Assembly: GCA_964106645.2 (NCBI GenBank)
Contig: OZ067043.1
DNA: 64,000 nucleotides
DNA from: Podarcis pityusensis
Taxonomy: Eukaryota
Direction: 5' to 3' (one strand)
Shown here: piece after piece, positions 7,757 through 46,128 of the stretch
Layout of the letters: every line of letters starts with the position of its first letter
Numbering within the stretch: position 1 is the first letter of the stretch
Program-made: the position numbers and the translations under genes
Notes under the pieces: generated by a model
What the model was told of the DNA's origin: nothing
The model's database searches: none
What the model saw: the letters and a program-made list of their open reading frames with translations, nothing else

Positions 7757-7766
7757 TTTATTTATT
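7757..7766 (-). terminator. Candidate poly(A) signals (two overlapping AATAAA) for the env transcript
   Basis: Plus-strand TTTATTTATT. These are the nearest canonical minus-strand AATAAA I found, ~960 nt downstream of the env stop, within an old LINE-tail-like AT tract. Confidence 0.3.
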
Positions 7767-8723: not shown

Positions 8724-11084
8724 TCACAGGCTTCCTCTGGCGGCCTGTATCTGGTTCTCTAAATCATAAAGTCTTTGTGTTTGCCGCCTCATCCAGCTGA
8801 CCAGCAGCAACAAACTGATCACTAGCGCCACTTGAAATAATAAAATCACCACAATAGGGTGGAGAGCAATATTTAGCACTCCATTTGAACTTGGAGACCA
8901 TCCAAGAAGCACCTCCCACCAAGCGTGGTCTCCAGCAGATTTAACTGTGGCTACAATCTGGGCAATCTCCCTATTGCTATGCAGAATCTCAAGTGCAGCA
9001 TTTTCACCCATGTCTTTGATTTTCAACAATTCCTGCTTCAGGGAGGGGTGAGAAAGCAGGTTTTTCAGAGTAGAAAGGCCAAGGCCTAGAGAAATAGGCG
9101 AGATTTCTCGATACAAAGATGGGTAAGCCTTCATGTGCTGCACAGTCCAAACAGGTACCCGAAATTGGAAATCACAGCCTACAAGCACACTAATATTGCA
9201 AAAACAACGGTTAATATAAGGCAGCATAGGCTGGATAACCAGACCATTAATGATTACAAACTCACATGGCGTTCTTACACAAATACAGCCCTTCCCAGTA
9301 TACACAACAATAGAACTTTCTTCTTGGATTACATCAAAAGAGCAGTGGGAACTATTTACAAGCTGAGGAGAGAAGCATTCGTGGTGTTCTTCTAAACTGT
9401 TGTCATCACATACAAAGCCCAAGTTTTCCCTTTTCACACAACCTTGCACATTAACTGTTTGCCAGTCACCATTCCTCATCCGTGCCCACCTATTGGAGTC
9501 CCTGGAATACATGACCAAATCCTTGTCAATCTGGAATCCCAAGGGGACCACTGGATAGATTGGGATGATCTGGGTGGCTTCTACGGTTATTAAAAATAAC
9601 CGCAGCATATTCTGGGCAGAATCATAAGATGCATTTAGCAACCTCCACCAATTCTCCAAAGCTATTTCTCCTGAAGTGAGCTCTGGCCGAATTAAATTGC
9701 TCACCTCCATGGGAATGTTTCCCGCCTTGGCCTCTCGAATCATTCCCATGACTACATTCTGTGTGATTGCTTGTGCCTGTTCACATGCTAAAGCCAATGA
9801 AACATTGCTTTGGAGGGACTGGATTCCAGACACAATCAACATGCTGTCCTCTTCTAATATTGCTTCCCAGACTGGAAGCACTTTACTGATAGCTTGTGGT
9901 TGTTCTGTGAGCTGCAAGAGAGATTTGGTTAATGGAGCAGTCAGTTTCCCTATTTGTTTTGTGGAATATGAAAGTTTATTAGCCAAGACTTCTATGTTGG
10001 CTGCATCTATGAAAGAAAGACCTGCTCCTAGGGGCCCAAGCCAATCCATCAGTTCTCTTTTAACCCTTTCCCCATGATGTACTCCATCCCACATTTTAAC
10101 CCACTCCATCCAACCTCTGTGGCTGACTCCGAGAAAGGGAGCACATTGAGGTGCTCTCTGTGACACATTCAAACCCTCAAAATGAATCTGCACCTCCTTT
10201 AGTGAGGTCTGGGGGTGCATGACAATTTGTTCAGGCTGATCTAATTTCAACACATGAGACCCAATGATGGGGTTGGTCAAACGGCGAAGTGGGAGGATGT
10301 CTGTGATCAGGGGATTAAATGTAAGAATTGTTTTGTTTTGAGAGCCAAATTCTACCCGGTATGAACCTTGCTCACTTATTTCCTCTGTGATGGCAACAAA
10401 ACCATAGAATTTAAACCTAATAGAGGACATTTGTTGGTCACAGTGTGTCCCCCTGATCGGCACCACCCAGTCTGGTGGCCCCTGTTTAATTAAGTCCATT
10501 CCATTTAATTCCCACTCCTGAGATTCCCAATTAACGATTAGGCGGGTGATGTTCTTTCCAGAGGGCGAAATCAAGGACAGCTGGAACTGATCTCCAGGAA
10601 ACCTAGTGTTCTGGGTTCCAACAACAGTTCGCAGATGCAGCGGTGCACCAGGTTTCCATAAAGCAGCAGAAATGAGGGCAACATCGCACGAACCATCCTG
10701 GATGCTGCTGCTTTCGGCTGAACGAGAATCCAGATGTGTAGGCAAAGGTCGGCAAGAAACAGGAATGCGAACACTTGAACTGGCCGTCTGCATGCTGTAA
10801 CAAAAATGTCCAACTTCTCCACTGGTCTTGAGGGTGCAATTGGCTATGTCTCTCCAGTGGCAGCTGATTGAGTCTGAGACGGCATGGAACATGTAGAAGC
10901 TCTGGAACACTCCAGGGTTGGATCCATTGGCATACAATCCATGCATGCGACAAAGCAACCTTGCTTCAGCTACTCCTCCTTTCGGCAGACAGGCCCACAA
11001 CTTCACAGGGATGGCAGACACATTCGGGCTGGCAGAAACAACCATCCATCCGTTCCCCAGGAACAGCAGCAAAGGCAACAACAT
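8724..11084 (-). CDS. Intact retroviral-type envelope glycoprotein (env), 786 aa from the probable ATG; candidate domesticated ERV gene
   Basis: Single uninterrupted ORF (track 8724-11189). It contains a signal peptide MLLPLLLFLGNGWMVVSA, a furin site RVKR (10056-10067), a fusion peptide LMDWLGPLGAGLSFI, a heptad-like region and a Cys-rich ectodomain. These are followed by a Trp-rich membrane-proximal segment, a TM helix IVVILLFQVALVISLLLLVSWM and a ~21-aa tail. About 10 N-glycosylation sequons. Confidence 0.92.
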   Translation of the reverse strand: MLLPLLLFLGNGWMVVSASPNVSAIPVKLWACLPKGGVAEARLLCRMHGLYANGSNPGVFQSFYMFHAVSDSISCHWRDIANCTLKTSGEVGHFCYSMQTASSSVRIPVSCRPLPTHLDSRSAESSSIQDGSCDVALISAALWKPGAPLHLRTVVGTQNTRFPGDQFQLSLISPSGKNITRLIVNWESQEWELNGMDLIKQGPPDWVVPIRGTHCDQQMSSIRFKFYGFVAITEEISEQGSYRVEFGSQNKTILTFNPLITDILPLRRLTNPIIGSHVLKLDQPEQIVMHPQTSLKEVQIHFEGLNVSQRAPQCAPFLGVSHRGWMEWVKMWDGVHHGERVKRELMDWLGPLGAGLSFIDAANIEVLANKLSYSTKQIGKLTAPLTKSLLQLTEQPQAISKVLPVWEAILEEDSMLIVSGIQSLQSNVSLALACEQAQAITQNVVMGMIREAKAGNIPMEVSNLIRPELTSGEIALENWWRLLNASYDSAQNMLRLFLITVEATQIIPIYPVVPLGFQIDKDLVMYSRDSNRWARMRNGDWQTVNVQGCVKRENLGFVCDDNSLEEHHECFSPQLVNSSHCSFDVIQEESSIVVYTGKGCICVRTPCEFVIINGLVIQPMLPYINRCFCNISVLVGCDFQFRVPVWTVQHMKAYPSLYREISPISLGLGLSTLKNLLSHPSLKQELLKIKDMGENAALEILHSNREIAQIVATVKSAGDHAWWEVLLGWSPSSNGVLNIALHPIVVILLFQVALVISLLLLVSWMRRQTQRLYDLENQIQAARGSL

Positions 11085-11125
11085 CCTGGAAAACACCTGA
11101 GAGAAAGAGAACAGAAAAAGGATCT
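11085..11125 (-). promoter_or_regulatory. Splice acceptor feeding the env ATG
   Basis: Minus strand reads CTTTTTCTGTTCTCTTTCTCTCAG|GTGTTTTCCAGGATG: a polypyrimidine tract plus CAG (AG at 11098-11097), 12 nt before the ATG at 11084, which has A at -3. Confidence 0.8.
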
Positions 11126-11778
11126 CCGAAACCCCAGTTGCCTGGGTATGCATCACTACTGCAACTCTAGTTCTTTGATGAGGCATCATTGACAGGTGCA
11201 GAATCCATGAAAAAGAAGGGACTGCTGGTCCAAGTTAGCAATCAGAATGGCTACTAAGTGATGGACTGGATTCAGATTGAGACCAAGAATCCTGGGGGTA
11301 TATATTTCTGCTCAGAAAGCAGGTTATAACAAGGGACTAGTGGCCCACCTGGAATACATGCCAGTGGCATCAGCCAGCTAGCATATTTTACTTATTTTAC
11401 TAGCTTTCTTCCAGAATAATCTTTTCCAGATTTAGTATCCAGAAATCAGGGGATTTCTAGTGACCCAAGATTAAGAGATGCTTGGCATCCCTGAAAAGAG
11501 AAGAGAGAGAAACCCTTTTATTTAGTTGTCTACACACTTGGCATTCAACATGGAAATTTTTGGCTGTAATGCTCAACAGACAGTCAAAGAATAGCAAACC
11601 AATTTCTACTTTAATTATGAAATTTAAAAACTTTCCACTCCTCCCAACACTGGAAACTTCCACTCTGCATATTCTAGGGGAGTTCAACAATTATCAGTGT
11701 TTAAATACTTGTTTTTCTTTTCTTTTTTACTGAGATGACAGGACAATCCAGAATGTATTCTGGGCATGGGGATAGAGA

Positions 11779-14110
11779 TTTATTCTATTTATTTAACAAA
11801 TTTTAAATACTGCTTGCCTGTAAGAAAACCTCTAAGTGGTTTAAAGGTAAAGGGACCCCTGACTATTGAGTTGTGGACGACTCTGGGGTTGCGGCGCTCA
11901 TCTCGCTTTACTGGCCTCTAAGTGGTTTACATAAGTATAAAATAAAGCATTAAACCTCAGTATAAGAACAGTTAAAATAGGTATTTAAAAACATGTAGAA
12001 GACTATCATAATCAACACTAGCAAAAAAAGAGAAGATGCTTATGTAGCTTCTACATGTCTGAATAGGATTGCCGAAACAAAAATGTTTTAAGCAGGTGGT
12101 GAAAATTACAGCGAAGGTACCTGCCTGATGTCAAGCAGGCAGGGAGTTCCAAAGTATAGGTGCTGCTACACAGGAAGAACAATTTCTTGTAAGTATTGAA
12201 CAAGTATTATGTGGCACCATTAATGCTGTCAGTTCTGCAGATCAAAGCAGTTGAGGGAGCATATATGGAGTAAAGTGATCTTGCAAGTAAAATGGCCCCA
12301 AGCTGTTAAGGGTTTATATTCTAATAGTAATTCCTTGAACTTGGCCTGGTAGCAAATGGGCAACTGGTGCAGAACTCCAAGCAAGGGTGTATATGCAGTA
12401 TATGCAGACAGGGTTTCATTCCTGTCAGTAACGGTGCAGTAACTAATTGCGGCTTCTGGTTCAAGTGCATGGGAAGCCCCACAAAGACTGAACTGAAGTG
12501 CACTGCAGTAATCCCATCTTGAAGTCACCAATGCTTGAACTACTGTGGCCAAGCTATCCTGGTTCAGGACTGGCTGTTGGTGTCACCCTAGTTGCATGAA
12601 GTAAAGGGCACTTCTAGCAAATGAGGCTACCTGGGCATCCACTGGCAGAACAGGTTCCAGAAGCACCCCCAAACTGCTCCTTCAGAGAGAGCGCATCCAG
12701 GGAAATCAGTTGACTAATTGCTTGGACTAAAGAATCGCTCATCCACGGTATTTCTGTCATGCCAGGATTCAAGCTTAACATATTTTCCTTCACCCATCCT
12801 ACCACTGGATCCAGGCACCAGTCCAGGGCCCGCACCACCTGCCCTGATGCAGGTGTGATGGAGAAATAGAGTGAAGTGTCATTAGGATACTGATAACTCA
12901 TTGCCCACAAACTCCTAATGATCACTCCAAGCAGGTTCATGTAAATATTAAATATCACTGGGGAAAGAATAGTGTCATCCTGCTTCATGTAAGTGCAAAG
13001 GACCACAAAGCACTCTCCCTAAAAGCATTGTCCTGTAGGTAGGACAGGAACCATTGGAATACAATGCCCTCCAATTCCCATTTGACAGTGTCAGTCCAGA
13101 AGGATACCATTGTCAATGATACTGAAAGTCGCAAACAGAGCAAGAAGAGAAAGCAAAGTTGCACTCCCCTTGTCCCACTCTTTGAAAAGATTATCCACCA
13201 GGGCAACCAAGACGCAATCCCATGGCCAGGCCTGAACCCAGACTGAAACAGACCTAAATAATCCATGACATCCAATAATGCTTGCAGCTGCCCTACCAGA
13301 ATTCTCTTCACCACCTTCCCCAATAAAGGTAGTTGCAACTGGTTGATATTCTAGTCCAAGGGGTTCAGGCCTGGTTTCCTCAGGAGAGGTTGCACCACAG
13401 CCTCTTTCAAGGGAGTAGACACCATCCCCTTACGGACTTCAGTGCCAACCATACTCTGGCCCCAAACAGTCAAACCCCCTCTGCTAGCTTTAATAAGCCA
13501 GGAGGGACAGGGATCAAGAGGATACATGGTCAGGCATACAGCCAGGACCTTGTCTACATCAGCAGACTGCATCAGCTGAAACTGATCTCACAACACATCA
13601 TTGACTATGGCACTGGGTATTTCATCTAGAACTGCAATAACCGCAGAATTAAGGTCACTCTGAAGTCAAGTGACTTTATCCTCAAAATATATAGCCAGTT
13701 GGTCACAGTAGGTCCTCTAATGCTCCAGAGGTCCTTCCCCCTCTGTGGAAGTCAGTAACATTCAGAATGTTTGAAATAATTCCACTGGCCAGTGACTAGA
13801 GAATGCAATGCAAGCTGTGAATGAGCCTTCTTTGCAACTTGCATGCACTGCCACATGGTTGGCACAGTTACTGCACTAACCAGCGTTCAGTCAGCTTCAG
13901 AGTGAGACTTGTGTCACTTGCACTCTAGTCTTCATTCTGCTTGCTTCATAGCCCGAAGCTCTCTAGAATACCAAGGAGCTGCCCTAGCTCCACAACGCCA
14001 TAGAGGATGCTCAGGAGCGAATATGTCAACCACTCATTTCATCTCACTACTCCATAGTGAAGCATCAACAGGATTGTTCAGACTGTTTAGGAATTCCTCA
14101 AGAATTCAGG
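11779..14110 (-). mobile_element. Decayed non-LTR retrotransposon (L2/CR1 clade) ORF2 remnant
   Basis: Broken RT fragments (LDPCPSWLIK, LKEAVVQPLLRKPGL, LPLLGKVVKR...FQSGFRPGHG, LSPVIFNIYM, VVQALVTSRWDYC) with many stops and frameshifts; AT-rich 3' tail near 11780. The 5' boundary is approximate. Confidence 0.85.
11844..11914 (-). mobile_element. 5'-truncated Sauria SINE-like insertion with 15-bp TSD
   Basis: ACCTTT-type tail (plus-strand AAAGGTAAAG); perfect TSD CCTCTAAGTGGTTTA at 11829-11843 and 11915-11929. Confidence 0.8.
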
Positions 14111-14696
14111 AGCTCCTCAAGTTCCTTTAGTCTCGGAGAGTGGGCCATCCAAATAGGCCTACTTTACTACTAATTACTACTAATGTTGACAAGGGACTGA
14201 ATTGCACCCCCACCACCACCAAAAAAAGTTTGATCTATCCCTCATATCACTTGGGCTAAAGACAACATCAAGATTGTGCCCTGCCTGATGTGTTGGACCA
14301 ACAACCATTTAAAACAGTCCCATGGGGCTCTGCCACTGGGCTACAGGGCAGTTGATAGACCAGTTACATTCCCAGTTAGCCACACAACTCCAGCTATACT
14401 TTCCCCTGCCCATCACCACTGAAAGTGGGGGAACATATTCACAACTCCTTCCTACCTGCCCATCCAGACACATCCTGGCACCATAATCCAATGTCATACT
14501 ATACAGCTGGGCAATTAAGGCCACAGATAAACAAAGGTCCAGTAGTGGGCACATCCCACACTTTCAGATGGAAGGTAGTAACTTCATAACAACTCTCCTT
14601 ATGCTGTCTCTCACTCAGAGGGAACCCACCAAACCAAGTTTCTCCTCTTCCTGGCTTTCACAGGCCTGCTTTCCACATTCTCATTTTCAGTATCCT

Positions 14697-15058
14697 AGAA
14701 TCATAGAATTGTAGAGTTCGAAGGAACCCTTAGTGTCATCTAGTCCAACCCCCTGCAATGCAGGGATCATAGCTGAGAAACCCTTAACATATCCTTGACC
14801 ATCCAACCTCTGAGGTAGTCAATTCCATAATTGAATAGCTCTTACCACCAGAAAGTTCTTTCTCATGTTTAGACAGAATCTCCCTTCCTGTAATTTGAAT
14901 CCACTGCTTTGGGTCCTACCCCCGGGAGCAGCAGAAAACAAGTTTGTTCCATCTTCCATGCAACAGCCCTTCAGATATTTGAAGATGGGTATCATATCAC
15001 CTCTCAATCTTCACTTCTCCAGGCTAAACATACCCAACTCCCTCAACCATTCCTCATA
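14697..15058 (-). mobile_element. CR1 LINE 3' fragment
   Basis: ORF2 C-terminus (RGDMIPIFKYLKG...GGRTQSSGFKLQEGRF.LNMRKNFLVVRAIQLWN) and ATTCTATGATTCTA tail. Confidence 0.9.
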
Positions 15059-17109
15059 AGGCTTTGGGGATACCCTGCCACAGCTGATGTGTGAATCTGC
15101 ACACATCAGATTCTGCATCTACACTCCAGCTATGTCCACTCAACTAGCATTCAAGCAGTACCACTCACTGCAATCAGCACAAACACTCTCTAACCTGAAG
15201 GCAGAGATCTAACAGGACAAAAACTGCGTGGTCATCCTGTAGATTTGCTCTCCTGCTGATGAAGCAGCCGCCTATATAAAGATGCTTGCCAATCCCACCT
15301 ATCCCCCCCCCCCCACATCTCCATACCTTCCCCATTAACCCCTTACACCAAGAGTGGGCAAGTGTTCTGGGTCCCACCCCACATGCTAGCTTTGACAAGT
15401 AGGGAGAGCAACCCACCTGCCACGCACATGACATTATTATGGTATCACATGATTGTTCCACCCTCCTTTCAAAATCCCTTGTGGGGCTTCCAAGCACTTG
15501 CTGCTGCTGAAGGAAGCCACAGAGAAGCCTGCATTTTAAAATGCAGCCAGTGGTCCAGGGCTGCTGCAGCCTGTTCCAACTGTCCCTCCGCAGCTCACTT
15601 CCCTTCATCATACTATAATTCACAGAGCCACCTATCTGTGCCCAATCAAACTTCAGGGTGATGGCATTCTTGCATATTTATGATATGTAAGCTATATTAA
15701 ACTGTATTTATTATTTTCTCAATATAATTGCTGCTTTTTGAATAAAACCTGTAAATGGCATTACAGACATCAGGAAATTCTGATTTATTTCTGCCTTAAA
15801 TGCTTGTTTCCTTACCTTCTTAGTCGCCCTTCTCCAATCTGTTATCCTCCAAAAGCTTCAGACTACAACTTCTTTCATTCTTGACTGTTGGTCATGCTGA
15901 CAGGGGCTGATGGGAGTGAATTCAAATCACTAGAGGACACACCAGGCTGAGGAAAGCTGTTCAATGCTGTTAAACCCAGATTTACAGCAGAAGTCTAACC
16001 ATGTCTACTCAGAAATAAGTCCAATTGAGTTCAATGAAGCTTACGCTCAGGTAAGTTGGGTTAAGACTGTAGCCTTACTTTCTTTTGCAAGTGGCCCATG
16101 CTTTGTATTCTGAACGAAAGCCTATGCTGAAGTTTCATATAAGTTAATTTTATTTTTCAAGAACTTCCAGCCAGAAGCTAGTAGGTTCCTCTCCTTCTCT
16201 GTTTTCCTAGGCACAGAGAGAAACTGCCACTCACACCAACAATTCAGCTTTGTACTGGTAGCATTGCAGTCTAGGCTGCACTCATCCAAGACAGCTGGAA
16301 AAGTGTTTAGCAACCCTTTTGCCCCCTCTACAGATGCCTTGAGATTGCTGACTGAACAGTGAGAAATCTGGAACTATTAACTTTACAGAGTTGCATTTTC
16401 TCACCTCATTTGCCAGTCATATCAACACTTTCCTGTCTGGCACCCAAATACATTTTCAGTGTGCAAAACTAAAACACCTGCGGATGAACAGATGGCCCTG
16501 CAACACTAAGACTCTCAGACACTATGCCTATGAGAGAGTAAGAGTCATATCATTGTACACCAACAAACGATGGCACCAAGGCCAACAAGGCAGTGCTAAG
16601 TCATAACAAAATCTACCGTACCATCCATTCTGCCAAGGACAAAGTCTCCTGAAGAGATCAGAACCAGAGGCTTCAGAGCAAGTTCCAAGGGCATCATGGC
16701 AGGTTCCCTTATCCCTGGAAAAGGTTCCAGTTTAACAACAACATGGGTAATAAAATAAGATGAAAACACTTATTAAAATTCCTGCCTCTTAAAATCTTAA
16801 ATCTAACCACTGGAAGTCAACCCCCAAAAGGGTGATTTCCCAATGCTTCTCAAAAGTGCTGAAGCTTGATCAATCTCAAAATAACAGAACTTCCAAATTA
16901 ATGTTGCAGCCACCAAGCATACCTTGCTTCCAAACAATCAAGAGGGCCTTCTTGGCTGATCTAAGATGTATCTTTATATTTTAAGATTACAGAAAATGTG
17001 AGGAGTCGTATATGTCTACTTATTTCAGAGTGAAGAAAGGAGAGAATCTCGAAAAGGTTAACTTCAGGCAGAGGTGCCTCCAACAATAATTTGTCAGACT
17101 TTAAGAATA

Positions 17110-17335
17110 CAGTGGTACCTCAGGTTAAGAACTTAATTTGTTCCGGAGGTCTGTTCTTAACCTGAAACTGTTCTTAACCTGAAGCACCACTTTAGCTAAT
17201 GGGGCCTCCTACTGCCGCTGTGCCGCCAGAGCACGATTTCTGTTCTCATCCTGAAGCAAAGTTCTTAACCCGAGGTACTATTTCTGGGTTAGCGGAGTCT
17301 GTAACCTGAAGCGTATGTAACCTGAGGTAACACTG
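17110..17335. mobile_element. Tc1/mariner-type MITE (same family as 5203)
   Basis: Same TIRs and internal sequence, TA flanks. Confidence 0.85.
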
Positions 17336-18208
17336 TAGTGGCCATTTTTTCACAAGCGTGAATTTAGAACTAATCCAGAATAACAAAACAAGTGAGGATT
17401 AGAATCTAAACCACACTTTACAGAGCAGTTGCTAGAAACTCCATCAGTAAAGAGGAAAAACAAGACAATGTCATAGGAACGTATTTTTTTCACAAGGAAG
17501 TTCAAAGCTCTGTGTAGAAACTTCTCTATGAGTCATTCATGAAGAAGGAAGAAAGGCTTTCTATAGAAATCTAGAGATTTTTCCTGTGGAAATTTTAGCA
17601 TGCTTACACCTAGGGGAATTTTTTTATGGTGAATACTTTAAATATATCTATATATATAAAATAAAGAAATGCATATTCAAGCCAACAATTCAAAAATTGC
17701 TCTTCTGGTAATAAGGGGTTTGGGGAGTTCCTTCATGCAACAAAGTGGGTTTGATGAAAAACCCCTCAAGTCTGGAGCATTTAATTGCAGTATTACAAAA
17801 GACAGGTCCAAACCTCCTCCAATCAGAGCGGTCTATAAATCTTGTCTCTTCAGAAGTAAGATTACTTTAGATAACACTGTGAGGATTAAAAACTGAGCAA
17901 ACAACAGGAGACAATTCTGTTAATGATTTTCACAGGGATTAGTAAGGCATAATAGCTCTCCCACATTTCTCAGGGCAGTGTATTTTTTTCTCCCCTCCCC
18001 GTCCCAAAAAAGACATCAATCACTGTTACTGGTTTTTGAGTCCAAAACAAGAAATATGTTGGAATTGATGGATTGTCAAAAGGTATTAAGAAAGAGTTGC
18101 CAAGAAAAGCGACTTCACCTGTCATAAAAGCGAACACAGAATGAAGTGGCAGCAAAAATGGCAGGATCTCACTAGCCTGTACTTGTCTTCAGAAATCTCA
18201 GATTTTTC

Positions 18209-18211
<3 letters not shown>

Positions 18212-18244
<33 letters not shown>
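18212..18244. repeat. (TA)n microsatellite
   Basis: Direct reading. Confidence 0.95.
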
Positions 18245-18246
<2 letters not shown>

Positions 18247-21155
18247 GAAAAACATTTACACATCAAATAAAAAATGATGGTGGGAGGATGGGGCAGTAGA
18301 GGAGACAAAGAAAGGCTTTGCTCCTATTAATGTTCAACATCAGTATTTTGATCACCACTTGGGACTCTCATTTGCTCACCAACCCTGCCAAACCCCACAC
18401 TGTATTGACAACTCCCATCACCCCAACACCCTTACAGCTCCTTCACCCCAACACCCCCATATACCCATCACAACCCACCCGGTTTCCAATCTCTGTCTCA
18501 CAGTTTGTCCAAAACTCGTGCCTCCTCCAACATTTCACCCTAGTCTCAAGATCCGCTGTCACCGTCAATCACAGAGAAGAGGGGCATGAAGAGAAGAGAG
18601 CTTTCCCCTCTTTCAGCACGCACCACTTTCACTGGCAGAAGAAAGCGTGCATTTATAAATGGACACTTCTTTCTGGTGGCAGTGAACTAAGGGGAGAATG
18701 TTTTCAACCTGTAGCAGCAGTGGCGACGATGACAGGGAGCACCCCTTCAGCTTGTCTCCCCTCATTGTCCCCGCATGAAACCAAGCTAGGAGGCAGCGGG
18801 TGGCTGCAACAACAACAGGAGGGACATGTGAATGCCCACCTGGGCCACCCACCTACCCACTTGCTTGCTCTGCAGGCCTGTTTACTCATGCTACTGACCT
18901 GCCTGCTTTGGTCACTCACTCTGCCCGCTGTTGTTGTGTTGCAATTTATGTGGTTGCCAACTGGCAGTCACACAAATTGCAGTGTGAAAAACTTTCTCGT
19001 ATATAGGAAGATATAAAATGCCCCTACTCGGAAGCATCTGTTAAAAATAGGTTTGGTTACTCCTGAAAGCTAGTATCTTATTTCCTATTTTAAAGCAACA
19101 CAAAAGGCCCATGAGAAAGTTTTCCTGCCAGGGTGTAACCCTATCTGTACATCTGAAGAGCAGCATCTCTTCCCAGTCAGCTCTCTTGCCAGCATCAAGG
19201 CCGCATATGGAAAACAGAATGAAGCTTTTTTGTCAATAAATACAAATAAGACCATGGTCATATACTCAACTCAGAAATGTAATGAATGTGGGAACAGACT
19301 GCGATATAGTTATACTAAGAGTAAAGACAGCAAGAAGACCCATGGGGTTCCTTCCAACTCTATAAATCTAAGATTAATTGGTTATGGTTTATATCCTTCT
19401 ATTTCCCCAAGAAATGCAGATCAGAATACCAGATGTTTTGGTGGTGGAGTTTTAAGTAAGAAATTATTTATAAGGGCCTTGAGAAGTCATTTCAAGAGCA
19501 GCAAAGGCTTTTCCAGAGAGGGCAGTTCTGAACTTTGACAAATGGATGCTTTTCTCTTTGGTAGACTTTTAGCATGTCTCCGTTATATGGTCTTTGCCCA
19601 GCCAAATTCACCACAGATGCTGACCATTTGATTGGGCATCTGTTCCTGCACTCTGCATGTTTCTTAAAGACTGTACACCACCAGGGCAGTGTTTCTGAAA
19701 TGATAATGTTGATCCTCTCAGAGGATGGGAAAGGACAGCGAAACTCCAAAGAAAAGGGCTTTATCTTGCAGATTGTTTTGTTTCAGATACAAACAAAATT
19801 CCAGCTGTGAAAAGAAAGGATAGGACTTTCTCTAGTATGTGACAACTAAAGAGGAACTGAATGGGTGAGTCTTATATGCCTTAATAGAGTTGATGGGTGG
19901 GTACTAAAAATTTTAGTCAACAGAAGGGATGAACATGTCACAGTCGTCTTTGAAAGATGGGCCATGTACATGCACAGATCCTATATATGGGTTGGCAAAC
20001 AGAGACACTTAAAAGAATAACAGTTGCAAGTAACTGCATCACTATTGTAAATTTATATACCATGTCCTTCTCCAAGGAATGGTGGCTTTAAAAAAAACAA
20101 ATAGTGAAATCAGAGTAGATCTATTGAAATTAATGGACCCAATTCAGTCATGTTTCAGTGGATCTACTCTGAGGAAAACTCAGTTGAATATCACCCATTG
20201 CTTAAAAAAATAGAACGTAATGTAAACCTCCAAAGCCTCAAAGATAATCAGTTTTCAATTGTGCCCAGCATCTGTTTACTACTGAATATTTTGATGACTT
20301 TGCTGTATGCACTATACAGCAGTTTTCACAACAATGGCAATATCTCTAAGTATCATAATTGATGTTTCATCAGCATTCTCACCTTAATAGCTCTACTTGA
20401 CCTGTGAAATTGCTCTGTGGGAACCACAATTTCCTGCTGAGTCTGTTTGGAATGTTACGCTGCTTTTCAATTTTAGATTTTAATGCTCAGTCTCTAAAAG
20501 AAGAAAGACAGTACATTGCCAACACCTAAAATCCTACAACATCTTCCACATTAAAATGGCCATATTCTAAGTGTTCAGCTACTTAGAAAGAGAAATGCCA
20601 CTGCTTTACTTTAATAGCATATTATTACCAGGTGCTCAAATATAATCTGCTATGGTGAGAAACTGTTATACTAATGTTGCATGCTCACCAAAAAGTTCAG
20701 AAAATCACACTGCAGGGTTTCATTTCATTCGGGTGAGATGGAACACAGCTGATCTGTGTCTCTGAACAAAGGCAGAGCCTATTGAAAGCAGCCTCAGCAG
20801 AAACCCGATGCTGATATACTGAGCTTAATTAACACAGTTGCTTTGAAAGATTCAGGGCAGTGGCATGTTGAACTACCTTCCATGAGAATTTTCATAACAA
20901 AACTCACACCACTTATTCATGATCCTGCAGCTCAAACAAACAGAACCGAGAATAGATCAGAGGCCACTCACACGTCTCCAGCCTAGATCTCTGTACGCCC
21001 TAACACAGCGTCTCCTTTTCCAAATGCTAAGAAAACAGAAATTAAGGTCTTACTGACTCCAAGCAATATATTGTCCCTACATTACAGAACCCTAAACATC
21101 CTCTTGCCTGCACACTGGCCGCAGTATATTAAAACCATGAAAAACAGCAACTCAC

Positions 21156-21189
21156 CCGCCAGGAGAATTCAGCAGACTGCCTGCAGCAT
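21156..21189 (-). other. Possible alternative non-coding exon
   Basis: Strong donor GCGG|GTGAGT at 21155 and a weaker acceptor CTCCTTTCAG at 21190. It could instead be the 3' end of an alternative first exon. Confidence 0.3.
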
Positions 21190-21933
21190 CTGAAAGGAGC
21201 ATGTGACTTTTGTGTACTTCTCTATCGCTCCGCCTCTGCCTCTGCCACCTGCTCAGAGTGTTTATGGAATTGCTGGCCAAGAAAATAGCACAGCTACTGC
21301 TTCATGACTGCACTCAAATTCCTTGCCCTTTCTCAGTACAGTTTTAGAAGAGGGTTGTACATGAAGCCAGGGGAAGCAGGGAGTCCCCAGAAAATTCACT
21401 GGTGGTGTTACAAGTCAGTAATTCAGACCCATGTCATGATCAGGGTGCAGGAGGCTTCTTTTGAATTGAGGCAGTGGCCACCCACAGTGACCCAGAGCAT
21501 ATATACCAGTTTTGCTCCCCACCCCAACATACACACTTTTTCATTCATGTTTATAAAGTTCCTGAAAGGAGCTTTTGAAATAAAAATCAGAAAAGTAAAA
21601 CAGGCGGAAGCTGTTCTTTTGCCATGGAAATGACACAGTCACTACACCACTCCCTGCTATTATGCCAAATGTAGGTAATACAGAGAAGATAAGCAGGCAG
21701 GTTTCAGAGTGAGCTCTCCCTCTTTGAACAGGGTGTTGGAACTTGTAAATCTCCCATGACTACCAACTAGAAATGAGAAGGGAATGTAGTTTTCTGAACC
21801 AGACCGATGACCACAAACACAAGCCAGAATTATCATTCATCCCATACCTACTATTCACTGAAAAGCCTCCTGATGTTTATTGTTTAAAGATACCTTAATT
21901 ACAAGGCTCTGAGTATCTAATGCTTTCAAGATC

Positions 21934-21935
<2 letters not shown>

Positions 21936-21999
<64 letters not shown>
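21936..21999. repeat. Compound (CA)n(GA)n microsatellite
   Basis: Direct reading. Confidence 0.95.
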
Positions 22000-22002
<3 letters not shown>

Positions 22003-22445
22003 TTAATGTCACCTCATTAGAGAATCAAAAATCTTTAACCAACTGACTAATCTAGGGCAGAGGTGGTCAAAGTGTAGGACTCCAAATGCTCGGACTACAA
22101 CTTGTATCAGCCCCAAGCATTGGACATACTGGCTGAATCTGATGGGAACTGTAGTGCAAAACATCTGTAAAGCCACTGGTTAGCCACCCTAATCAAGATG
22201 GGTTTTTTTATTTTTAAAAAAGACAACAGGGCAAATTACCACTAAAATCTCTCTAATTTCACAATATCATTAAATAATCTTGTATCAAACATATTGCCAG
22301 CAAGTAATTTTAACCACCTCTCTCTAAGTCTCTCTTTCCATGCCAGAAAAACAATAATCCTACCCTCAGTAGGAATGAGAAGAGTTATACCATTCTAACT
22401 CATGATATATCCAGAACACATGAACACACACACTACTGTAACTCA

Positions 22446-22452
<7 letters not shown>

Positions 22453-22493
<41 letters not shown>
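22453..22493. repeat. (CA)n microsatellite
   Basis: Direct reading. Confidence 0.95.
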
Positions 22494-22495
<2 letters not shown>

Positions 22496-22794
22496 CCCAA
22501 TCTTGCCTTTTCTCATGGAGATGGATAAAGCAGGTGCTAACCTGCATGCCATTCCTAAAGTTCTTCAAAATCACCTTGACTCATCAGACTGAGGCAGATA
22601 AAGGATTCAAGACGTAGCTGAACTGGCACACACTGACCACCCTGCACCCAGCTTTTGCAGAAGCTAGTGGATCCAAATGTGCTGTTCTAGCCAACTCCTT
22701 TTTCCTGGCCAAAACTGGTAAGTCTGCCCAGCAATAATTATATGGATCTTCCTAACCATATTCCTTCACCTACAATGGTTTATTTTATTGACCG

Positions 22795-23005
22795 ATTGCA
22801 TTTATATCCCACCTTTGTCTCCAAGGAGTTCAAGGCGGCGTACATGGCTCCCCCAACCACCCTCATCATTTTATCCCCACAACAAGCTTGGGGTGTAGGT
22901 TAGGCTAAGATACAGTGAGTGGCCCAAGATCACACACTGAGCTTCATGACTGAGTGGGGATTTGAACCCTGGTCTCCTAGGTCCTAGTCCAACACTCTAA
23001 GCACC
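22795..23005 (-). mobile_element. tRNA-derived squamate SINE
   Basis: B-box-like GGTTCAAATCCC in a tRNA-like head on the minus strand, with an AT-rich tail. Confidence 0.65.
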
Positions 23006-25722
23006 ACCACACCCCATACACAATTTAAACATGAACACACAGAGCATCTGCCAGGTTGCAGGGTTAGTTTCTGGGTGTGAAGGGTGCAGATGGCTTCCCA
23101 TTTGCTGCTTCGTGGAAGCACATGATGTGTAGAAGAAATGCAGTCACACACTGTTTAGTGCACAGGGAAGCCGTCCTCTCGCAGGCAGCACCTGCATTTG
23201 GCCTTGGGCTCTAAGTGCACTGAGTGGTCTCTACATCTTGCCACCTGCATGCACAAACAATAGGCAGCACAGTGCCCTCTGTCGTCTAAATTGCTTATGC
23301 TCTTGTCACTGAGTGAACTATACTACATGTGCATCTTTAAAAGAATCCTGCATTACAAGAGCCGTTCACAATTAATCCTGTGTATTTGTCGCAACACAAG
23401 TATATTTTCAAAACTGGTAATTCGCCTTAAGAGTAAAAGGGTGCAATTTCTATTAAAGCATTTTGTTACTCTCCCAAACACAAAGCAATCCAAGCACACT
23501 AAATATCACTGCTTCTCAACCAGTTCAGAAATTCATTCTTCTCCCCTTCTGTTGCCCACTGGTGAATAGGAATATTTGGATTTTACTCTTCATCCCCAGC
23601 AAAAAGGCAACAGCAGGGTCACTGTTCCTACTCTGGAAGTGCTTGCAGTGGTATGACAGGGATTTTGTATCCCCATTTCAGGCTTTTGTTTTTACAGAGG
23701 GTGTGATCCATGCACAAAACTTGTTCTATCATGAGTATCACTTCTTGAAGGAATCTGCCTTGTGATTACAGTGTAACAAAGGGCACTCTAAAAGTTTGGC
23801 ATTTTCTTTACAAAAGCAACAAAATAAACAATCATTTCGCAATCAATATCAAGCTACATATTCATATTTAAAAGGCGTCTGTTTATTTATTTGCTTCCTG
23901 CCCTTTATTATAAAGTCCCTTTACAACCATAAAAATATACAATTATAAAACAAGTAAAACAGTTATAAACATAAAGCAAGATAAGTAAAAACACTTCCAT
24001 TTAGAAAAAGTTAAAAACAATTCCACAAATTAAAAACAGTTTCAATATAGTTCTAATACAGATGCATTCATTTTACAGCAACTATAGAAGTGAAATCTAT
24101 TGTACCCTGCCCCTAGGATGTTGGGATGAAAGGCAGGTTGAATACCCTTAATAAATAACAATTCTTCCTTCTTCTAATAAAATATGACAAGTCCAATGAA
24201 GATACAATGGTGATATGATTAAGACAATATTAAATTATAGAAATAAATCTTCTGCAATAAACAGTTTTGTTACCATCATAAAGTTAAAGATTAAAGTAAA
24301 TGTAAGAGTGAGTTTAAGATTCCATTTTGGATATACATTATATCATTTTTGCTGTTATCCAGATTATGTTCTTGTATTTTATTGTTGGGCCTTATTATGA
24401 ATTATCAATGGACTAATTTTAATGCATATTTGCTAACATGATTTTTTTCATTAGGCTGTTGTTTATATGACTATTTAAATTTTGTTATGTATTGTAATTG
24501 TTAGTGAATTATCTTACATAAACTTTTTGATGTGAGCCATTTTGAGGATGGTTCAGCATGGAAAAGTGGCATACAAATAAATAATGGTGGCAATAATAAA
24601 CAGAAAGCTACTTGGGATTTCTTTTAGGTTTCAGATGCTCCACTTCATTCCAGCTAATCTCCATATACCACAAAACAATGACAATGGTCCATGCTAATTC
24701 TTTCAGCACACCACTGGGTCAGCATAGGCGAGACAAGATCACATTGCACAAAATTCCAGGAAACATAGTAGCTCCTCCATTTACTCAAACATTAATTTAC
24801 AACCTTTAGCTTTACTGAACTGGCAGTGTGGGAATGCCTTAAATATGAACAGATGAGTTTGCAGAAGAGCACAAACAAAACCACTATAATTTTCTGTCCT
24901 CATTTCTGAAAGGCTACACAGAGGGTGGAGTTGTGCATTATATCAAACCTGGTAAAGCCAGGGAAATACATGACTTATACCTGGTACTAAGAAACAACAG
25001 CCTTGTCTTAACCAAGGTAACTAGGCTTGTGAATCAGTCAGCTAAGCCTTCCAAAGATAGGCAGTGACAGTATTTACAAACTATATGTGAATCCTTTTCA
25101 TGCAGCAGAATTGCACAGAAAGGTATTCAACTAGGTTTCAATGAAAGTAGACCCATTAAAATTAGCTGACTTTATACAGTCATGTTCATTAATTTCAATG
25201 GGTCTACTCTGAGCGAAACTTAGTTAATTACCACCCATATCATTTAATGAACAGGATTTGGAACAATTTCAGGGACTGACAGTATTTTACAAAAACACAG
25301 GAAAGCATCAGTATCTAACATGCACTCATTTAAATGCTAATAATTCTTCTTTTTCACAGAGGGAGTGCTGTAAGATACAGAGAATAAACTACCAAACATG
25401 AGTAGAATTTAGCAGCATGCTACCCACAACTCCAACTCACACTCTAACTCCATAATACTCTAAAGCACAGATTAAAACAGAAGGTTAATATACATTCTCT
25501 CGTTTATTACTGTATTTCACAGATAACACTGAGAGATATCTTGTTCATTTATATTTGTCAGCTGTTCAAACAATAAGAAGTACTATTATCACATGCAGAA
25601 TATGAAACCAACAGAATCTGAAAACAACCCCCACATCCATTGCTGGGACTTTCCAGAGTATAATCCAATATATAATCAAATATACCTAGAACCCCCAAAC
25701 TGAGATTTTAAGAGCAGGTTAC

Positions 25723-25813
25723 CTCTTTTGACCAAATTTCTCCGTTCACCTGTTGGTGAAAGCCAACCTGTCGTTACCATGTCAGCATGAAGGAAGTCCC
25801 AGGTGGAAAGAAA
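25723..25813 (-). other. PPARD: Non-coding 5' UTR exon 2 of the CpG-island gene (probably PPARD)
   Basis: Acceptor TTTTGCTCTCTTGCAG| and donor GAG|GTAAC define a 91-nt exon. It contains GGCTTTCACCAACAGGTGAA, resembling recalled human PPARD exon 2 (GGCTTCTGCTCACCAACAGATGAA). Confidence 0.65.
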
Positions 25814-25976
25814 CTGCAAGAGAGCAAAACACGTTTCAACTCCATGCATAAACGGCACCAAAAAAAAGGTTGCAATTTGAAGCACATGTGAAGAAAAATG
25901 TACTGAACTGGGCTTCATTCCAAACAAGTAAACAGAGCTTTAGGATTTGCTTTAGATAAACAGAGAGAGATAAACA

Positions 25977-26111
25977 CATAGAGGGATGAGGAACCTGTGG
26001 CCCTCCAGATCCTCTTGGATTACATTTTGCATCATCAACAACCACACTGGTTGTGGCTGATGGTAGATGGAGTCCAACAACATCTGGAGGCCCACAAACT
26101 CCCCCATCCTA
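25977..26111. mobile_element. Palindromic hAT-like MITE; related copies near 15855, 22060, 27160 and 59072
   Basis: Inverted ends GGAACCTGTGGCCCTCCAGAT...ATCTGGAGGCCCACA, recurring in the window. Confidence 0.6.
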
Positions 26112-27405
26112 AGCCCAGAAAGTCATATTCTGGCTACATAGCTACGCTTTTCTTGTGCACTTAGATGGACGCTTATTAAGGATCTAGTTGTAGTGCTGAA
26201 GAGCTCTTAAGGCAGTGGTTTTCAACCAGTGTGCCATGGCACCCTGGGGTGCCTTGAATGATGGTTGGGGGGGTGCCACGGGCAACAATGGCCTCTGTCC
26301 CTCTTTCCTTTATTCCCTCCTCTGATTCCCTCTTACGTCTATGCCTCCCAAAGGCATGTGTGACTGTTTGTTGCAGCAGCTATAAGCTCCCAAGGTGACT
26401 CTGAGGCTGGCCAGGAGGTGCTTCCCAGGCCCCTGTAGGGCAGTGTGAGGAGGCACCTCTCTTTGGGGCAGAGGGGCAGCTCAGAGACTAGGGGCAGCAG
26501 CTGCGGAAGCCCAGAGGACTTCCAAGGAGAGGGGCGAGGAGAGGAGGCTGAGGGAACATTTCAAGTGTGGTGCAGCAGGTAATAATCGGGTGTCAGAATA
26601 AGACCTAGGAACCGTGGCCTCAATTCCCTGTTCATCAATGCGGCTCACTTGTTAGCTCTGAACTCTACTCACACAACTCTCTAAGTTTCAGCTGTCTCAC
26701 AGGATTGTTATTAGGATAGAACAGGAGAGGAGAGAAGTATGTTCTCAGTTCCTTAGAGAGACAAAAGAAATATAAAAATACCTAGAAGTAAACATAAAGT
26801 ATGGATCCCCTCTTATCACAAGAGAGAAAACAAGGACCCTTGCCCTACACCTCCCAAATTGTGAACAAAACCAAAGTTTATATGCGTTTTCTATCCCTCA
26901 GTGCTCAATGTTGTTTTCCATTGTCTTAGCTCATGGACAGAATGAGCTAAGGTGCATATTAAGGAGAGGTTTTGAGCATTCACTGTTGATGCTGGGGAGA
27001 AAGAAGTTAAAGAACCTTTTGACCTTGTCCACTGACTCACTCCCTTGTGATAAGTTTCAGACAATGACGCTGGCCCTTCATTGCTCAATTCAAAATATGG
27101 TTCCTGTTAGTGGTATTTTCTGTCATGCAAAGCTTGAGAATGACCTTCTTACTAGGCCAGGAGTGGAAAACTTGTTAGTCTACGAAACACTGTTGGACTA
27201 TAACTCCCACTATCTTTGATCACTGACCATGCTGGATGGGGTTGATTTGGAAGGCCCACAGATCCTCCCGTCCAGCTCTTGTGTAGCTAAATAACTTTTA
27301 AGGTATTTGCTCAATTTCTTTGGATGGCTGGTGGCTACCACAAAGCCACTAGAATGTTTGCATCACATCCCATGTTCCTGTGTGGGAACCGAAAAGTTAG
27401 GTATA

Positions 27406-27624
27406 CAGTGGTACCTCTAGTTGTGGACACGATCCGTTCCTGGGTGTCGTTCACACCCCAAAAAGTCTGCAACTAGAGCGGCGTTTCTGTGCAAGCGCGG
27501 AGCGCAATAGAGCGCTTCTGCATGTGCGTGTGTGGCAAAATTCGGAAGTATACACTTCCAGGTTTGCCATGTTCGCAAGCCAAAAAGACGCAAGATGAAC
27601 CTAACACAACACAAGGTGTGACTG
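27406..27624. mobile_element. Tc1/mariner-type MITE (second subfamily)
   Basis: TA-CAGTGGTACCTC start and degenerate ...GACTG-TA end; internal sequence differs from the 5203 family. Confidence 0.7.
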
Positions 27625-29699: not shown

Positions 29700-30720
29700 T
29701 GCAACGCCATGGGGCCCGATCCTCCACAGCATGCTACAAGCACGCCCGATCCGCCACTCGCTTTGGTGGGTGGGGGGGTGGATTTTGGATAACGGGGGTT
29801 TGTTGTTGGGGGCGAGTTGCTGAGGGAGCAGCATAACCTAGGACTGGGCTGGAGGGAAGGAAAAGCTAAGACGCAGGTTTTCCTTATTTGTTTTCTTCCC
29901 CCCTCCTTCCAAGAGGGGTGGGGGACGGGAGGAAGGGGCAAGCGAGCACCAGCTGTCCTGTGCCGTGTGCCTCCATCCTTCCCCCCAAGCCTCGGAGGGT
30001 GAAAGGGGGTTGCTGGTGTCACCGGGCAAGGCACGCAGCCAGGCAACGGGGCCAAGCTCAGCTGCAGCTGACCCGGAGCAGCCGCCACAGGGCACCCCGG
30101 AGGCGGACAGGCCTCGGCAGATACCCCAGGGCACCGACAACCGCCCCCCCCAAGCTCCCGTCTCGCGAGGCGCCACACAGAACTGCCCCCGTCCCTTCTC
30201 CGCCCTACAAACGCCGCCCGCTTCCCCCGCCACCTCACCTGCCGGCCGCGAAGGGCGCGCGCTCCCCGGCCGCCCTCGGCGCAGAACTTTTGTCATGAGA
30301 AACCCCAACCCGGCCCGACAACCACAGCAACCTCTCTCTTCTTTTTTTTTTTTTTTTTTGTCCCCGCCCACCCTCTCGCTCGCGTCACGCGCGCTGGGCC
30401 TGGCGTCACCGCGCATCGCCACCCCCGTTGGCCAGTCAGAGGCGCGAGGGAGGTATTAGCATATCGCCACGACGACGGCCCAAGCCCGTTCCCGCCCCCC
30501 TGAGGAGAGAAGGTGCTCTCTCGTCAGCAAAGGAGGCCAACCCTGTGGCTGGCTACCTCCTTCCCCGGTGCTCGTCGAGTGGCAGCGGGTTCTTCCGTGG
30601 AAGCGGCCGTCCGAGGGCGGAGAGTCCCTCCAGCGGGAGCGAGAAGTGGACGCCCGTCTCCGATATCGGACAGGCGGGTGCAAACAGGGCCAGGGACTTT
30701 CTGCATCTGGTCGCGGTGCA
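29700..30720. promoter_or_regulatory. PPARD: CpG-island promoter (probably PPARD), transcribing leftward
   Basis: The clearest GC- and CpG-dense non-coding segment in the window. GC boxes (CCCGCCC at ~30363 and ~30491) and CGTCA half-CRE sites (~30382, ~30403). It lies ~8 kb downstream of the DEF6 stop, matching the DEF6-PPARD tandem order known in human. Confidence 0.75.
30239..30340 (-). other. PPARD: Non-coding exon 1 (probably PPARD); 5' end approximate
   Basis: Consensus donor GCAG|GTGAGG at 30238. TGGGGTTTCTCATGACAAAAGTTCTG resembles recalled human PPARD exon 1 (TGGGGATTAATGGGAAAAGTTTTG). Confidence 0.65.
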
Positions 30721-40219: not shown

Positions 40220-41180
40220 ATCGCACAAGAGGAAATCCTTGCACTGATGGGACACAATGCAGTTCCCATGTTCTTCATTGCTAGCCCAAACATTCTAACA
40301 TAATTAGCAAAGCATACAGTAAAATCAGCACAAAACCAGGAGCAGTGGGCCCTTCTAGGGGGACTGTTCATACAAAATCTGGTTACTATCCTGTACTTCA
40401 AGTGCAATTATCCCAACATTATGCTAAGTGCACTTAGGAATAATCTTTCATTCCAAAATCTCTCTCAAAAGGCAACAGGTAGCAAATTTATGATAAATCA
40501 CAGTAAGTTGCTTTGTGGTTGTTGTTTTTTAAGTTGCTATATGACTGCAGATTTGATCACCTAATATTTTCAGAGAAGTGCTGATAACTGTAAAAAAATG
40601 CTAGCTTCATAGAAACAGAATTGAATAATTGGAAGGGATTCGGAGGGTAATCACAACTAAAACATCCATGACACCAAACCTCTGCTTAAAAATCTCCAAT
40701 GAAGTAGAGTCCACCAACTTGGTCCAAGGGAGTACAAGTACAGTGTCTCCTTTTTAAGGCACCACAGGTACTGGGATGCAGTTTTCACAGGACATACATC
40801 ATCTGAACTAAATCTCTGGAGCTCTCTCTCACAGGTGTACCATACCTGTTTTCTACTAGTGATTTACTTTGGCCGAGATTTGATAGTTTGATCTAGCAGT
40901 AAATAAGTGCATCTGTGTGTGTAAGAAGCAGGGAAGAGACTGCCTTACTTTGAGAAGGAGACTACATAAGGAGGCAATTTGAGCCCTTTTTGAATTGCAC
41001 AATTCAGTTTTGCACCATGCAAATGCTATAATCAGTTTACTGTTTTAAGCATGTAGTTTCTACCTTGCCATCTTGAGCTACTTATGGGGAGGTGGGATAG
41101 ACAGTGGCTAAATAAGATGTTTCTGTGGCAGTAACACTCTCCTAGAGAGAATGGGAAGCAGAGACAGCTCCTTCACTCAC

Positions 41181-41379
41181 CATGACATCCTGGTCCACCC
41201 TTTCTCTATTGACTCTCACTTCTTCCAGCTGCTGTTGGGCCTCTTCCAGAAACTTGCTCTTGTTTTCCATCTCTTGCTTGAGGATCAGTTTTTCATGCTG
41301 GGTTCTGATGATGTACTCCTCCTGCTCCTCCTTCAGCTTCATCAGCTGCTTCAATTTCTCCTCCTCTTCATTCAGCAAC
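41181..41379 (-). CDS. DEF6: DEF6 exon 9
   Basis: 199 nt, [22 protein letters not shown]...VDQDVM, with TAG| and |GTGAGT. Confidence 0.95.
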
Positions 41380-43330: not shown

Positions 43331-43497
43331 CGGGCCTGTGCATATCTCACGGCCTCTTCATCCTGACGAGCTTTAACCTCCTGGTGCAGAGCATCTTGGA
43401 GTCGTTGCTGCATCTCCTCCAGTTCTGTGATGCGCTTGCGCTGACGTTCTGCCTCTGCCTCCTTCAGTACCATCTCAGCCTGCATGTTAGCACGAGC
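43331..43497 (-). CDS. DEF6: DEF6 exon 8
   Basis: 167 nt, [20 protein letters not shown]...YAQAR. Confidence 0.95.

Positions 43498-46082: not shown

Positions 46083-46086
<4 letters not shown>

Positions 46087-46123
<37 letters not shown>
46087..46123. repeat. (CA)n microsatellite
   Basis: Direct reading. Confidence 0.95.

Positions 46124-46128
<5 letters not shown>

Follow-up and report, generated by a model that had tools for sequence, protein, structure and literature searches.

We analysed a 64,000-nucleotide stretch of Podarcis pityusensis DNA (GCA_964106645.2, contig OZ067043.1; hereafter the window), whose minus strand carries an intact retroviral envelope gene (env) in sense orientation within a 5' intron of PPARD. 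The open reading frame (ORF), read from the window at 8724..11189 (-), encodes 821 aa, the last 488 of which match a Podarcis lilfordi protein at 99% identity. The coding exons of PPARD share the strand of env and lie downstream of it (ATG exon at C6:44138806; exons of the DNA-binding and ligand-binding domains at 44128805-44133788), the nuclear-receptor exons lying 10-15 kb past the left end of the window, and a CpG island lies upstream, near window position 30,000; env is therefore placed in a PPARD 5' intron, in sense. The best match of the nuclear-receptor exons in PDB is PPAR-delta (E 2e-91, vs 2e-71 for alpha). The features of the locus, in window coordinates, are as follows.

8724..11084 (-): env coding sequence, 786 aa from M36, stop included; a single terminal exon in a PPARD 5' intron (ORF, orthologue starts, spliced contig)
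11085..11189 (-): in-frame upstream extension M1-M35, mostly intron, with pyrimidine tract and AG acceptor at 11098-11097 (spliced contig, run X3)
11096 (-): env exon start, 12 nt before the ATG (spliced contig, run X3)
11031..11084 (-): signal peptide, ORF about 36-53 (hydropathy; boundary by eye)
10698..11030 (-): N-terminal Cys-rich part of the surface subunit (SU), ORF 54-164 (alignment, AlphaFold model)
10305..10697 (-): Ig-like beta-sandwich module of SU, ORF about 165-295, a candidate receptor-binding module (model pLDDT about 80-90; fold matches)
10068..10265 (-): F2-like segment of SU with Cys349, ORF 309-374 (homology to Ovex1 ORF3 and structural match to F both start here)
10056..10067 (-): furin site RVKR, ORF 375-378 (motif)
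9981..10055 (-): putative Gly/Ala-rich fusion peptide, ORF 379-403 (squamate alignment; a weak alignment to the human parainfluenza virus 3 (HPIV3) F fusion peptide, not significant alone)
9696..9980 (-): heptad repeat 1 (HR1) and central helix with Cys469, ORF 404-498, predicted trimer coil 449-498 (models)
9174..9440 (-): Cys-rich beta block, ORF 584-672, the probable equivalent of paramyxovirus F1 domains I/II (profile, fold matches, Cys conservation)
9488..9490 (-): putative internal splice donor, exon end 9490 and GT 9489-9488 (from an Elgaria RefSeq protein tail, not from reads)
8925..9077 (-): HR2-like helices, ORF 705-755 (profile, models)
8799..8855 (-): transmembrane anchor, ORF 779-797 (hydropathy)
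8727..8798 (-): cytoplasmic tail, 24 aa (ORF)
15816..15956 (-): upstream 141-nt exon joined to the env acceptor, AG before and GT after, with two short upstream ORFs (X3 contig)
25723..25813 (-): exon 2 of the PPARD/env unit, about 91 nt (3' end taken from sequence)
30239..30400 (-): exon 1 in the CpG island, 5' end approximate (joint 30239 to 25813)
7761..7766 (-): candidate poly(A) signal, the nearest AATAAA past the env stop (sequence only)

Neither gag or pol remnants (pol, protease and integrase queries) nor remnants or flanking pairs of long terminal repeats (LTRs) were found in the window or in the 20 kb downstream. The only repeat present on both sides, a 219-bp interspersed element 3-6 kb away, was considered as an LTR pair and rejected. 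This env was the sole intact copy found in the genome; the other 22 matches are short fragments, most of them with stops, and these copy counts are lower bounds. At C20:31.38-31.73 Mb we observed at least 13 broken env C-terminal fragments on both strands, and the three that were compared have 0.75-0.95 kb in common at about 90-93%.

Sequencing runs from a close relative were mapped onto window positions 10450-30449. None of the runs listed is recorded as RNA; that runs X1 and X3 represent RNA is a guess, for which their spliced joints argue. The joint 30239 to 25813 was observed in 4/4 runs, and the joint 15816 to 11096, which connects the 141-nt exon to the env exon, in one contig of run X3; both are GT-AG. 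From these joints we infer a promoter common to env and PPARD. An unspliced 3.2-kb contig of run X1 (window 10450-11615) extends past the env acceptor by about 520 nt on its upstream side, and could reflect intron retention, pre-mRNA or a local start. Of the last six residues of a truncated RefSeq isoform from Elgaria, five agree with the opening of the PPARD ATG exon in this genome, and env is therefore tied to the PPARD unit in a second family. Judging from this tail, the Elgaria counterpart of the 9490 donor appears to join the PPARD ATG exon, yielding a truncated Env that lacks the transmembrane domain (TMD). Truncated isoforms of 551-590 aa are recorded in RefSeq/GenBank for Elgaria, Crotalus and Vipera; they exit env about 190 residues into the transmembrane subunit (TM), lack the TMD and are possibly a secreted form. 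No position in this genome was found for the tails of the snake isoforms.

Translation probably starts at M36, giving a product of 786 aa: orthologues are 783-789 aa long and start at or near the equivalent position. A start at M1 or M2 was ruled out, as both lie upstream of the splice acceptor in use. The sole R-x-[KR]-R site of the 821-aa ORF is RVKR at residues 375-378, and a motif scan found only one R-x-x-R site in the SU region. An earlier reading made from the sequence alone (the sequence-only reading) had placed cleavage after residue 378, and this site bears it out, leaving a TM of 443 aa at window 10055-8727; the range of 8727..10067 given in that reading is right at its lower bound and takes in the RVKR codons at its upper one. 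Counted from M36, SU has 343 aa, and it has 325 aa if the signal peptide stops near residue 53, a cleavage point set by eye from hydropathy; on this count TM is indeed longer than an SU of about 325 aa, as had been claimed. TM carries 11 cysteines (469, 584, 594, 605, 616, 635, 637, 642, 662, 664 and 672), all the Cys motifs quoted earlier for its Cys-rich block being present, and SU carries 9. A motif scan of the ORF, SU included, detected no CXXC, and likewise no CX6CC in TM; the best match to the CKS-17 immunosuppressive domain (ISD) is negligible (BLOSUM score 10) and is located in the signal peptide. The sequence-only reading had already noted that CX6CC and a CKS-17-like motif are absent. 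With no ISD, CX6CC or CXXC, this is a non-gamma Env, and the view that it represents a class of capture distinct from the syncytins is upheld. The PPARD setting, the age of the gene and its paramyxovirus-F fold had escaped that reading.

Within SU, the N-terminal Cys-rich part (ORF 54-164) shows a pLDDT under 50 and no resolved fold in the AlphaFold model, and the Ig-like module contains a conserved Cys168/Cys250 pair. In paramyxovirus F, a disulfide bond joins the F2 and F1 chains. Across the whole Env family Cys349 is kept in 34/36 rows and Cys469 in 48/51 rows, a conservation which, by analogy with that bond, points to a probable SU-TM disulfide between Cys349 and Cys469.

The predicted fold of the protein is that of a paramyxovirus-like fusion protein. 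A profile of 60 family sequences gave six matches in PDB, all of them paramyxovirus F (best E 0.0028). When the full AlphaFold model was compared with PDB using Foldseek, all rows listed were paramyxovirus or pneumovirus F (best E 2.6e-9), and VIA ranked Newcastle disease virus (NDV) F best, with Z 9.9 and a root mean square deviation (rmsd) of 9.5 over 321 residues (ORF 309-677). For the region of about ORF 165-295, VIA gave a distinct match to Ig/filamin-like domains, with Z about 7 and an rmsd of about 3. In BFVD the top match was A0A384ZVF2, a 928-aa record without name (1.7e-18), followed by the Env of walleye epidermal hyperplasia virus 1 (WEHV-1; 6.6e-13), an arlivirus glycoprotein and the Env of walleye dermal sarcoma virus (WDSV; 1.2e-11); foamy Envs came 29th-31st (feline foamy Env 31st, full model), behind walleye epsilonretrovirus Envs and many F proteins. 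With the core-only model the epsilonretrovirus Envs fall to 4th and 12th in BFVD, and VIA matched this model to foamy Env 8rm0 at Z 5.7 and rmsd 4.3 over 190 residues. The putative glycoprotein of Wenling thamnaconus septentrionalis filovirus came 2nd-5th in BFVD as an F-like protein, whereas Ebola virus GP2 is gamma-like. A gamma- or beta-type Env was never first in any fold list, post-fusion HERV-K appearing only at rank 49 among helical bundles; neither a gamma- or beta-type TM nor a cellular protein came first in any fusion-core search, and the result that was to refute the sequence-only reading thus did not arise.

In a three-copy prediction ORF 306-620 coils via residues 449-498, and the F2-like helix packs outside. 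The trimer score was 0.47 as against 0.00 for the best control, with a contact agreement of at least 49% and pLDDT of at least 60; the mark used was reached by 21/30 solved homo-pairs and 0/23 single chains (17/29 and 0/30 for eukaryotes). A homotrimer through HR1 is predicted. The models show F2 and F1 nested in one core, with a central helix and beta domains, which is the build of a class Ib fusogen as defined in PMC11468914, and they cast the long Cys-rich TM as an F1-like chain.

A profile search yielded 331 matches at E up to 0.001, and the next after the near relatives was chicken NP_001159385, LOC422926, which is Ovex1 ORF3 (PMC2717909). The two are 35% identical over 511 aa of the Env core (E 2e-105), from ORF residue 309 to the TMD, and the kinship with Ovex1 that the sequence-only reading had raised as a possibility is established by this alignment. 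Further family members are Envs of bird, turtle and frog endogenous retroviruses (ERVs). Among the distant frog members are Gastrophryne, Anomaloglossus, Mantella and Xenopus. The bird relatives sit on different backbones, namely Ovex1 (reverse transcriptase near SpeV/SnRV), class I GGLTR11 and alpha-like TERV (PMC2717909). A degraded provirus in this genome at about C19:20547100-20550300 (+; L017:5145-8300) shows the order RNase H, integrase, dUTPase, env: its RNase H-like stretch is weak (E 3e-4) and its integrase-like residues were read by eye, dUTPase PF00692 follows at 2.9e-17, and after it comes an env belonging to the present family (profile iE 7.6e-15), the whole being interrupted by an 880-bp high-copy repeat. 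A dUTPase placed after integrase is the layout of ERV3 (PMC4299795). With relatives on several pol types and no pol at the PPARD locus, Env alone cannot fix the class of the parent retrovirus, the class III suggested by the sequence-only reading included.

Other searches gave little. Pfam yielded nothing significant on the window protein, with no PF00523 at E up to 1, and no common family on 60 family members (Baculo_F in 1/60, at E 0.03). No longer homologue was found in a search covering 1561-4455 aa only, and scans of viral and metagenome contigs found no relative. In Atlas the whole protein matched a chordate cluster (874-aa representative) and then F/Baculo_F clusters at only 0.83-0.88, to be taken as leads only; SU alone gave no usable match.

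We then examined conservation. Five clusters at 90% comprise 43 squamate members, and the 37 listed come from 26 species; 29/37 bear the name PPARD isoforms. The carriers are lacertids, Rhineura (an amphisbaenian), Elgaria, Varanus, agamids, Anolis, Sceloporus and many snakes, with no gecko or skink counterpart among the cluster members listed. TM identity was 84-91% in nine counterparts compared. In ten squamate proteins compared, identity was 83-93% in TM and 71-89% in SU, and the fusion machinery is therefore the best-kept part. RxKR was present in 26/26 squamate rows, and TM was exactly 443 aa long in 23/24 pattern-matched squamate proteins, the exception being a truncated isoform. Each of the 11 TM cysteines is retained in 77-100% of the distant homologues covering the site; CX6CC occurs in 2/224 family proteins, neither of them a squamate counterpart. 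Comparison with a related species revealed purifying selection (12 synonymous and 3 non-synonymous differences, pN/pS 0.075, p 5e-6), based on the 15 listed coding differences over 635 nt of one contig; this contig shows 28 differences, of which 24 are listed, 9 of these upstream of M36. In a simulation of a neutral frame, survival was 0.6% at 0.05 substitutions/site and 0/1500 at 0.1, even without indels. This env thus bears the marks of domestication, namely an intact frame across 26 squamate species, purifying selection and transcription without a provirus.

The gene trees recover host pairs such as Elgaria with Varanus and Python with Pantherophis. The first was a quick tree from untrimmed rows and the second, core-only tree used 22 rows after 8 were dropped, with support by SH-aLRT (Shimodaira-Hasegawa-like approximate likelihood ratio test) only. 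Pelodiscus K7EZ49 and Alligator XP_059588713, both partial records, group as sisters, sharing 81% identity with each other in TM and about 60% with squamates; they were the only close turtle or crocodilian relatives in the homologue searches. In the core-only tree this pair falls within a 98% clade with the squamate gene and further relatives, the squamate, turtle plus alligator and two Logan branches being left unordered. The full-length Logan relatives comprise two that are 92% alike in TM, with RxTR at the cleavage site, and a third, deeper-branching one at 45%; these could stem from additional captures or from the missing reptile groups.

Lacertids, amphisbaenians, anguimorphs, iguanians and snakes span about 170 Myr (million years) or more. 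From the distribution of the gene we propose that the insertion predates the split of at least lacertoids, anguimorphs, iguanians and snakes. The turtle and alligator sequences may fit one early-reptile capture. The ancestor of all living reptiles dates to about 280 Myr; a single capture in that ancestor, kept in squamates, turtles and crocodilians as an F-like host fusogen under the PPARD promoter, is tentative and in our judgement rather doubtful. If this is true, no other intact captured env would come near it in age.

The explanation we favour, and hold to be somewhat better than an even bet, is that this is a domesticated retroviral env of F-type class Ib, nested in PPARD and retained as a host cell-cell fusogen. 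Its identity as a captured F-like Env is highly probable; for the fusogen role in the host we put the chances as evenly balanced. In this scheme an ancient retrovirus with a class Ib envelope would have inserted in sense into a PPARD 5' intron of a squamate ancestor; the gag, pol and LTRs of the provirus would have decayed while the env splice acceptor was retained, and PPARD transcripts would have come to use the env exon as an alternative terminal exon. The 786-aa product would enter the secretory path, be N-glycosylated, trimerise through HR1 and be cut by furin, giving an SU composed of the N-terminal Cys-rich part, the Ig-like module and the F2-like segment, disulfide-linked to an F1-like TM. 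It would then bind a receptor and act as a receptor-triggered cell-cell fusogen in non-placental tissue using the PPARD promoter.

A number of observations weigh against this explanation. Read depth over env was 0.33 in X23 and 0 in X24, the raw-read runs, and a joint from the 15816-15956 exon to exon 2 was absent among the joints listed. A single-sequence search of PDB gave nothing significant and the A3 profile 0 matches. Confidence in the structures was moderate, both for the full model (pLDDT 64, pTM 0.38) and for the core-only model (pLDDT 73, pTM 0.59); the rmsd to NDV F is high, and the core-only model matched F in VIA at Z up to 7.7, a range that the tool calls common. The trimer may have passed through likeness to solved F trimers; moreover, the calibration was on two copies and the prediction on three, and long helices form coils easily. 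In the Logan sister clade the cleavage motif reads RxTR instead of RxKR. Finally, conservation of TM is no proof of fusion, because class Ib folding itself needs TM.

One rival reading is that the captured F-like Env has lost its fusion activity and now acts as a trimeric protein in adhesion or as a ligand or receptor, modulated by a secreted truncated isoform. The good conservation of the Ig-like SU module, the TMD-less RefSeq isoforms of Elgaria, Crotalus and Vipera and the weaker cleavage motif of the Logan clade all agree with it, but squamates keep the furin site, fusion peptide, HR1, HR2 and TMD, and TM is better conserved than SU; we regard this as unlikely. Alternatively, the protein could be an antiviral restriction factor, working by receptor interference or by dominant-negative poisoning of related viral Env trimers. 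Such a role is known for captured envs (PMC2717909, PMC13709493), and related ERVs have invaded both the lizard lineage, as the degraded copies attest, and other sauropsids; yet changes in the N-terminal SU are purifying rather than diversifying, and retention in all sampled squamate groups seems long for an arms race, which makes this role improbable. The CpG-island promoter of PPARD, probably broadly active, would suit it.

In another reading the protein is incidental, the exon being kept to tune PPARD output by splicing or termination, since the env exon competes with the PPARD ATG exon. Constraint at the protein level contradicts this, and the codon pattern already largely refutes it. Recent or independent insertions are opposed by the invariant 443-aa TM, as is an incidental protein, and by a gene tree that recovers host pairs. 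We consider this whole group of explanations very improbable, and continue with a domesticated, F-like Env as the best account of the locus.

Farther along the window, in the region of about 41000-52000, an exon encoding a pleckstrin homology (PH) domain was noted at 48868-49035 (-). Its best match in PDB is KIAA0640, and it is probably DEF6, the usual neighbour of PPARD.

The 2020 survey of Wang and Han reportedly counts 177 co-option events. Captured envs are a known kind; what is new here is an old, constrained, PPARD-nested Ovex1-like env with an F-like fold. Our coverage of the literature, to which supplements and that survey did not belong, turned up nothing on an env in the PPARD intron or on an F-like fold for Ovex1 ORF3, and the excerpts of PMC12129022, PMC13709493 and PMC8922424 contain no description of a PPARD-intron env. 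The captured envs described so far are mostly gamma-type; gecko foamy env, percomORF and Ovex1, the oldest of those cited, date back about 96-122 Myr. Our findings suggest a separate, very old capture of a viral membrane-fusion machine that is F-like and not syncytin-like. Most squamate carriers of the lizard-type env lay eggs, and the protein is a candidate non-placental host fusogen in egg-laying reptiles. It also makes testable the nature of Ovex1 ORF3 and the spread of F-like envelopes beyond foamy and loki viruses: if the assignment is true, a large family of sauropsid and amphibian ERV Envs (Ovex1, GGLTR11, TERV, some ERV3), together with epsilonretroviruses, would use class Ib envelopes. 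On the practical side, an Env filed under the PPARD name may confound analyses of PPARD expression and isoforms in reptiles.

Among known systems, Ovex1 ORF3 shares with the lizard Env the Cys pattern, the lack of ISD and CX6CC, the status of a long-conserved host gene and an ORF that starts 11-12 nt past a splice acceptor. It differs in lying on chicken chr4 with gag-pol (PMC2717909), as against a solo env in PPARD, in an N-terminal SU that cannot be aligned and in forming a separate branch in both trees. It reportedly has no signal peptide, and the 2009 Ovex1 paper left its status as an envelope uncertain (PMC2717909). Paramyxovirus and pneumovirus F correspond to the lizard Env, as modelled, in the F2-like segment, furin site, fusion peptide, HR1 trimer coil, Cys-rich beta domains, HR2 and TMD. 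However, identity is about 8-16%, and the lizard protein, retroviral in origin and host-encoded, has an N-terminal extension of about 250 residues that includes an Ig-like module; coronavirus spike likewise carries its extra module N-terminally.

Of the retroviral Envs with a name, those of the epsilonretroviruses WDSV and WEHV-1 are the best matches by predicted fold, but at 1159-1317 aa they are much longer and only 11-14% identical. They are non-gamma (PMC9967133), and their SU resisted modelling (bioRxiv 2021.11.05.467493). Foamy Env shares the class Ib core and a long TM, and to this extent the spuma-like affinity proposed from sequence holds. It fails on the low BFVD rank and on the hallmarks of foamy Env, a membrane-anchored leader peptide and two furin-type sites (PMC11468914): the lizard Env has no TM1-bearing, membrane-anchored leader and no second furin site. 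Furthermore, the foamy receptor-binding domain is inserted in the F2-like part, whereas the extra module of the lizard Env is N-terminal and its F2-like match starts ~70 residues before the furin site. Squamates already offer one captured env that is solo and non-gamma, namely ERV-Spuma-Ppi/Gja, a foamy env co-opted in geckos and over 96 Myr old (PMC6669660).

F-like retroviral Envs are known from lokiretroviruses (PMC7947760), foamy viruses and errantiviruses (PMC13524379). The lokiretrovirus Env, compared by description only, has a signal peptide, RxKR, fusion peptide, coiled coil, TM and faint similarity to paramyxovirus F in common with the lizard Env (PMC7947760), which differs in having no PF00523 match and relatives on ordinary retroviral pol types. 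Syncytins and percomORF are, like the present gene, captured intact envs under purifying selection with host-driven transcription, but both are gamma-type, with a short TM in which an ISD is followed by CX6CC, the hallmark of that type (PMC9967133). PercomORF is described as the oldest intact ERV gene (PMC12813294), at least 110 Myr old (bioRxiv 2021.11.05.467493), and the capture of the PPARD env looks older than that of either.

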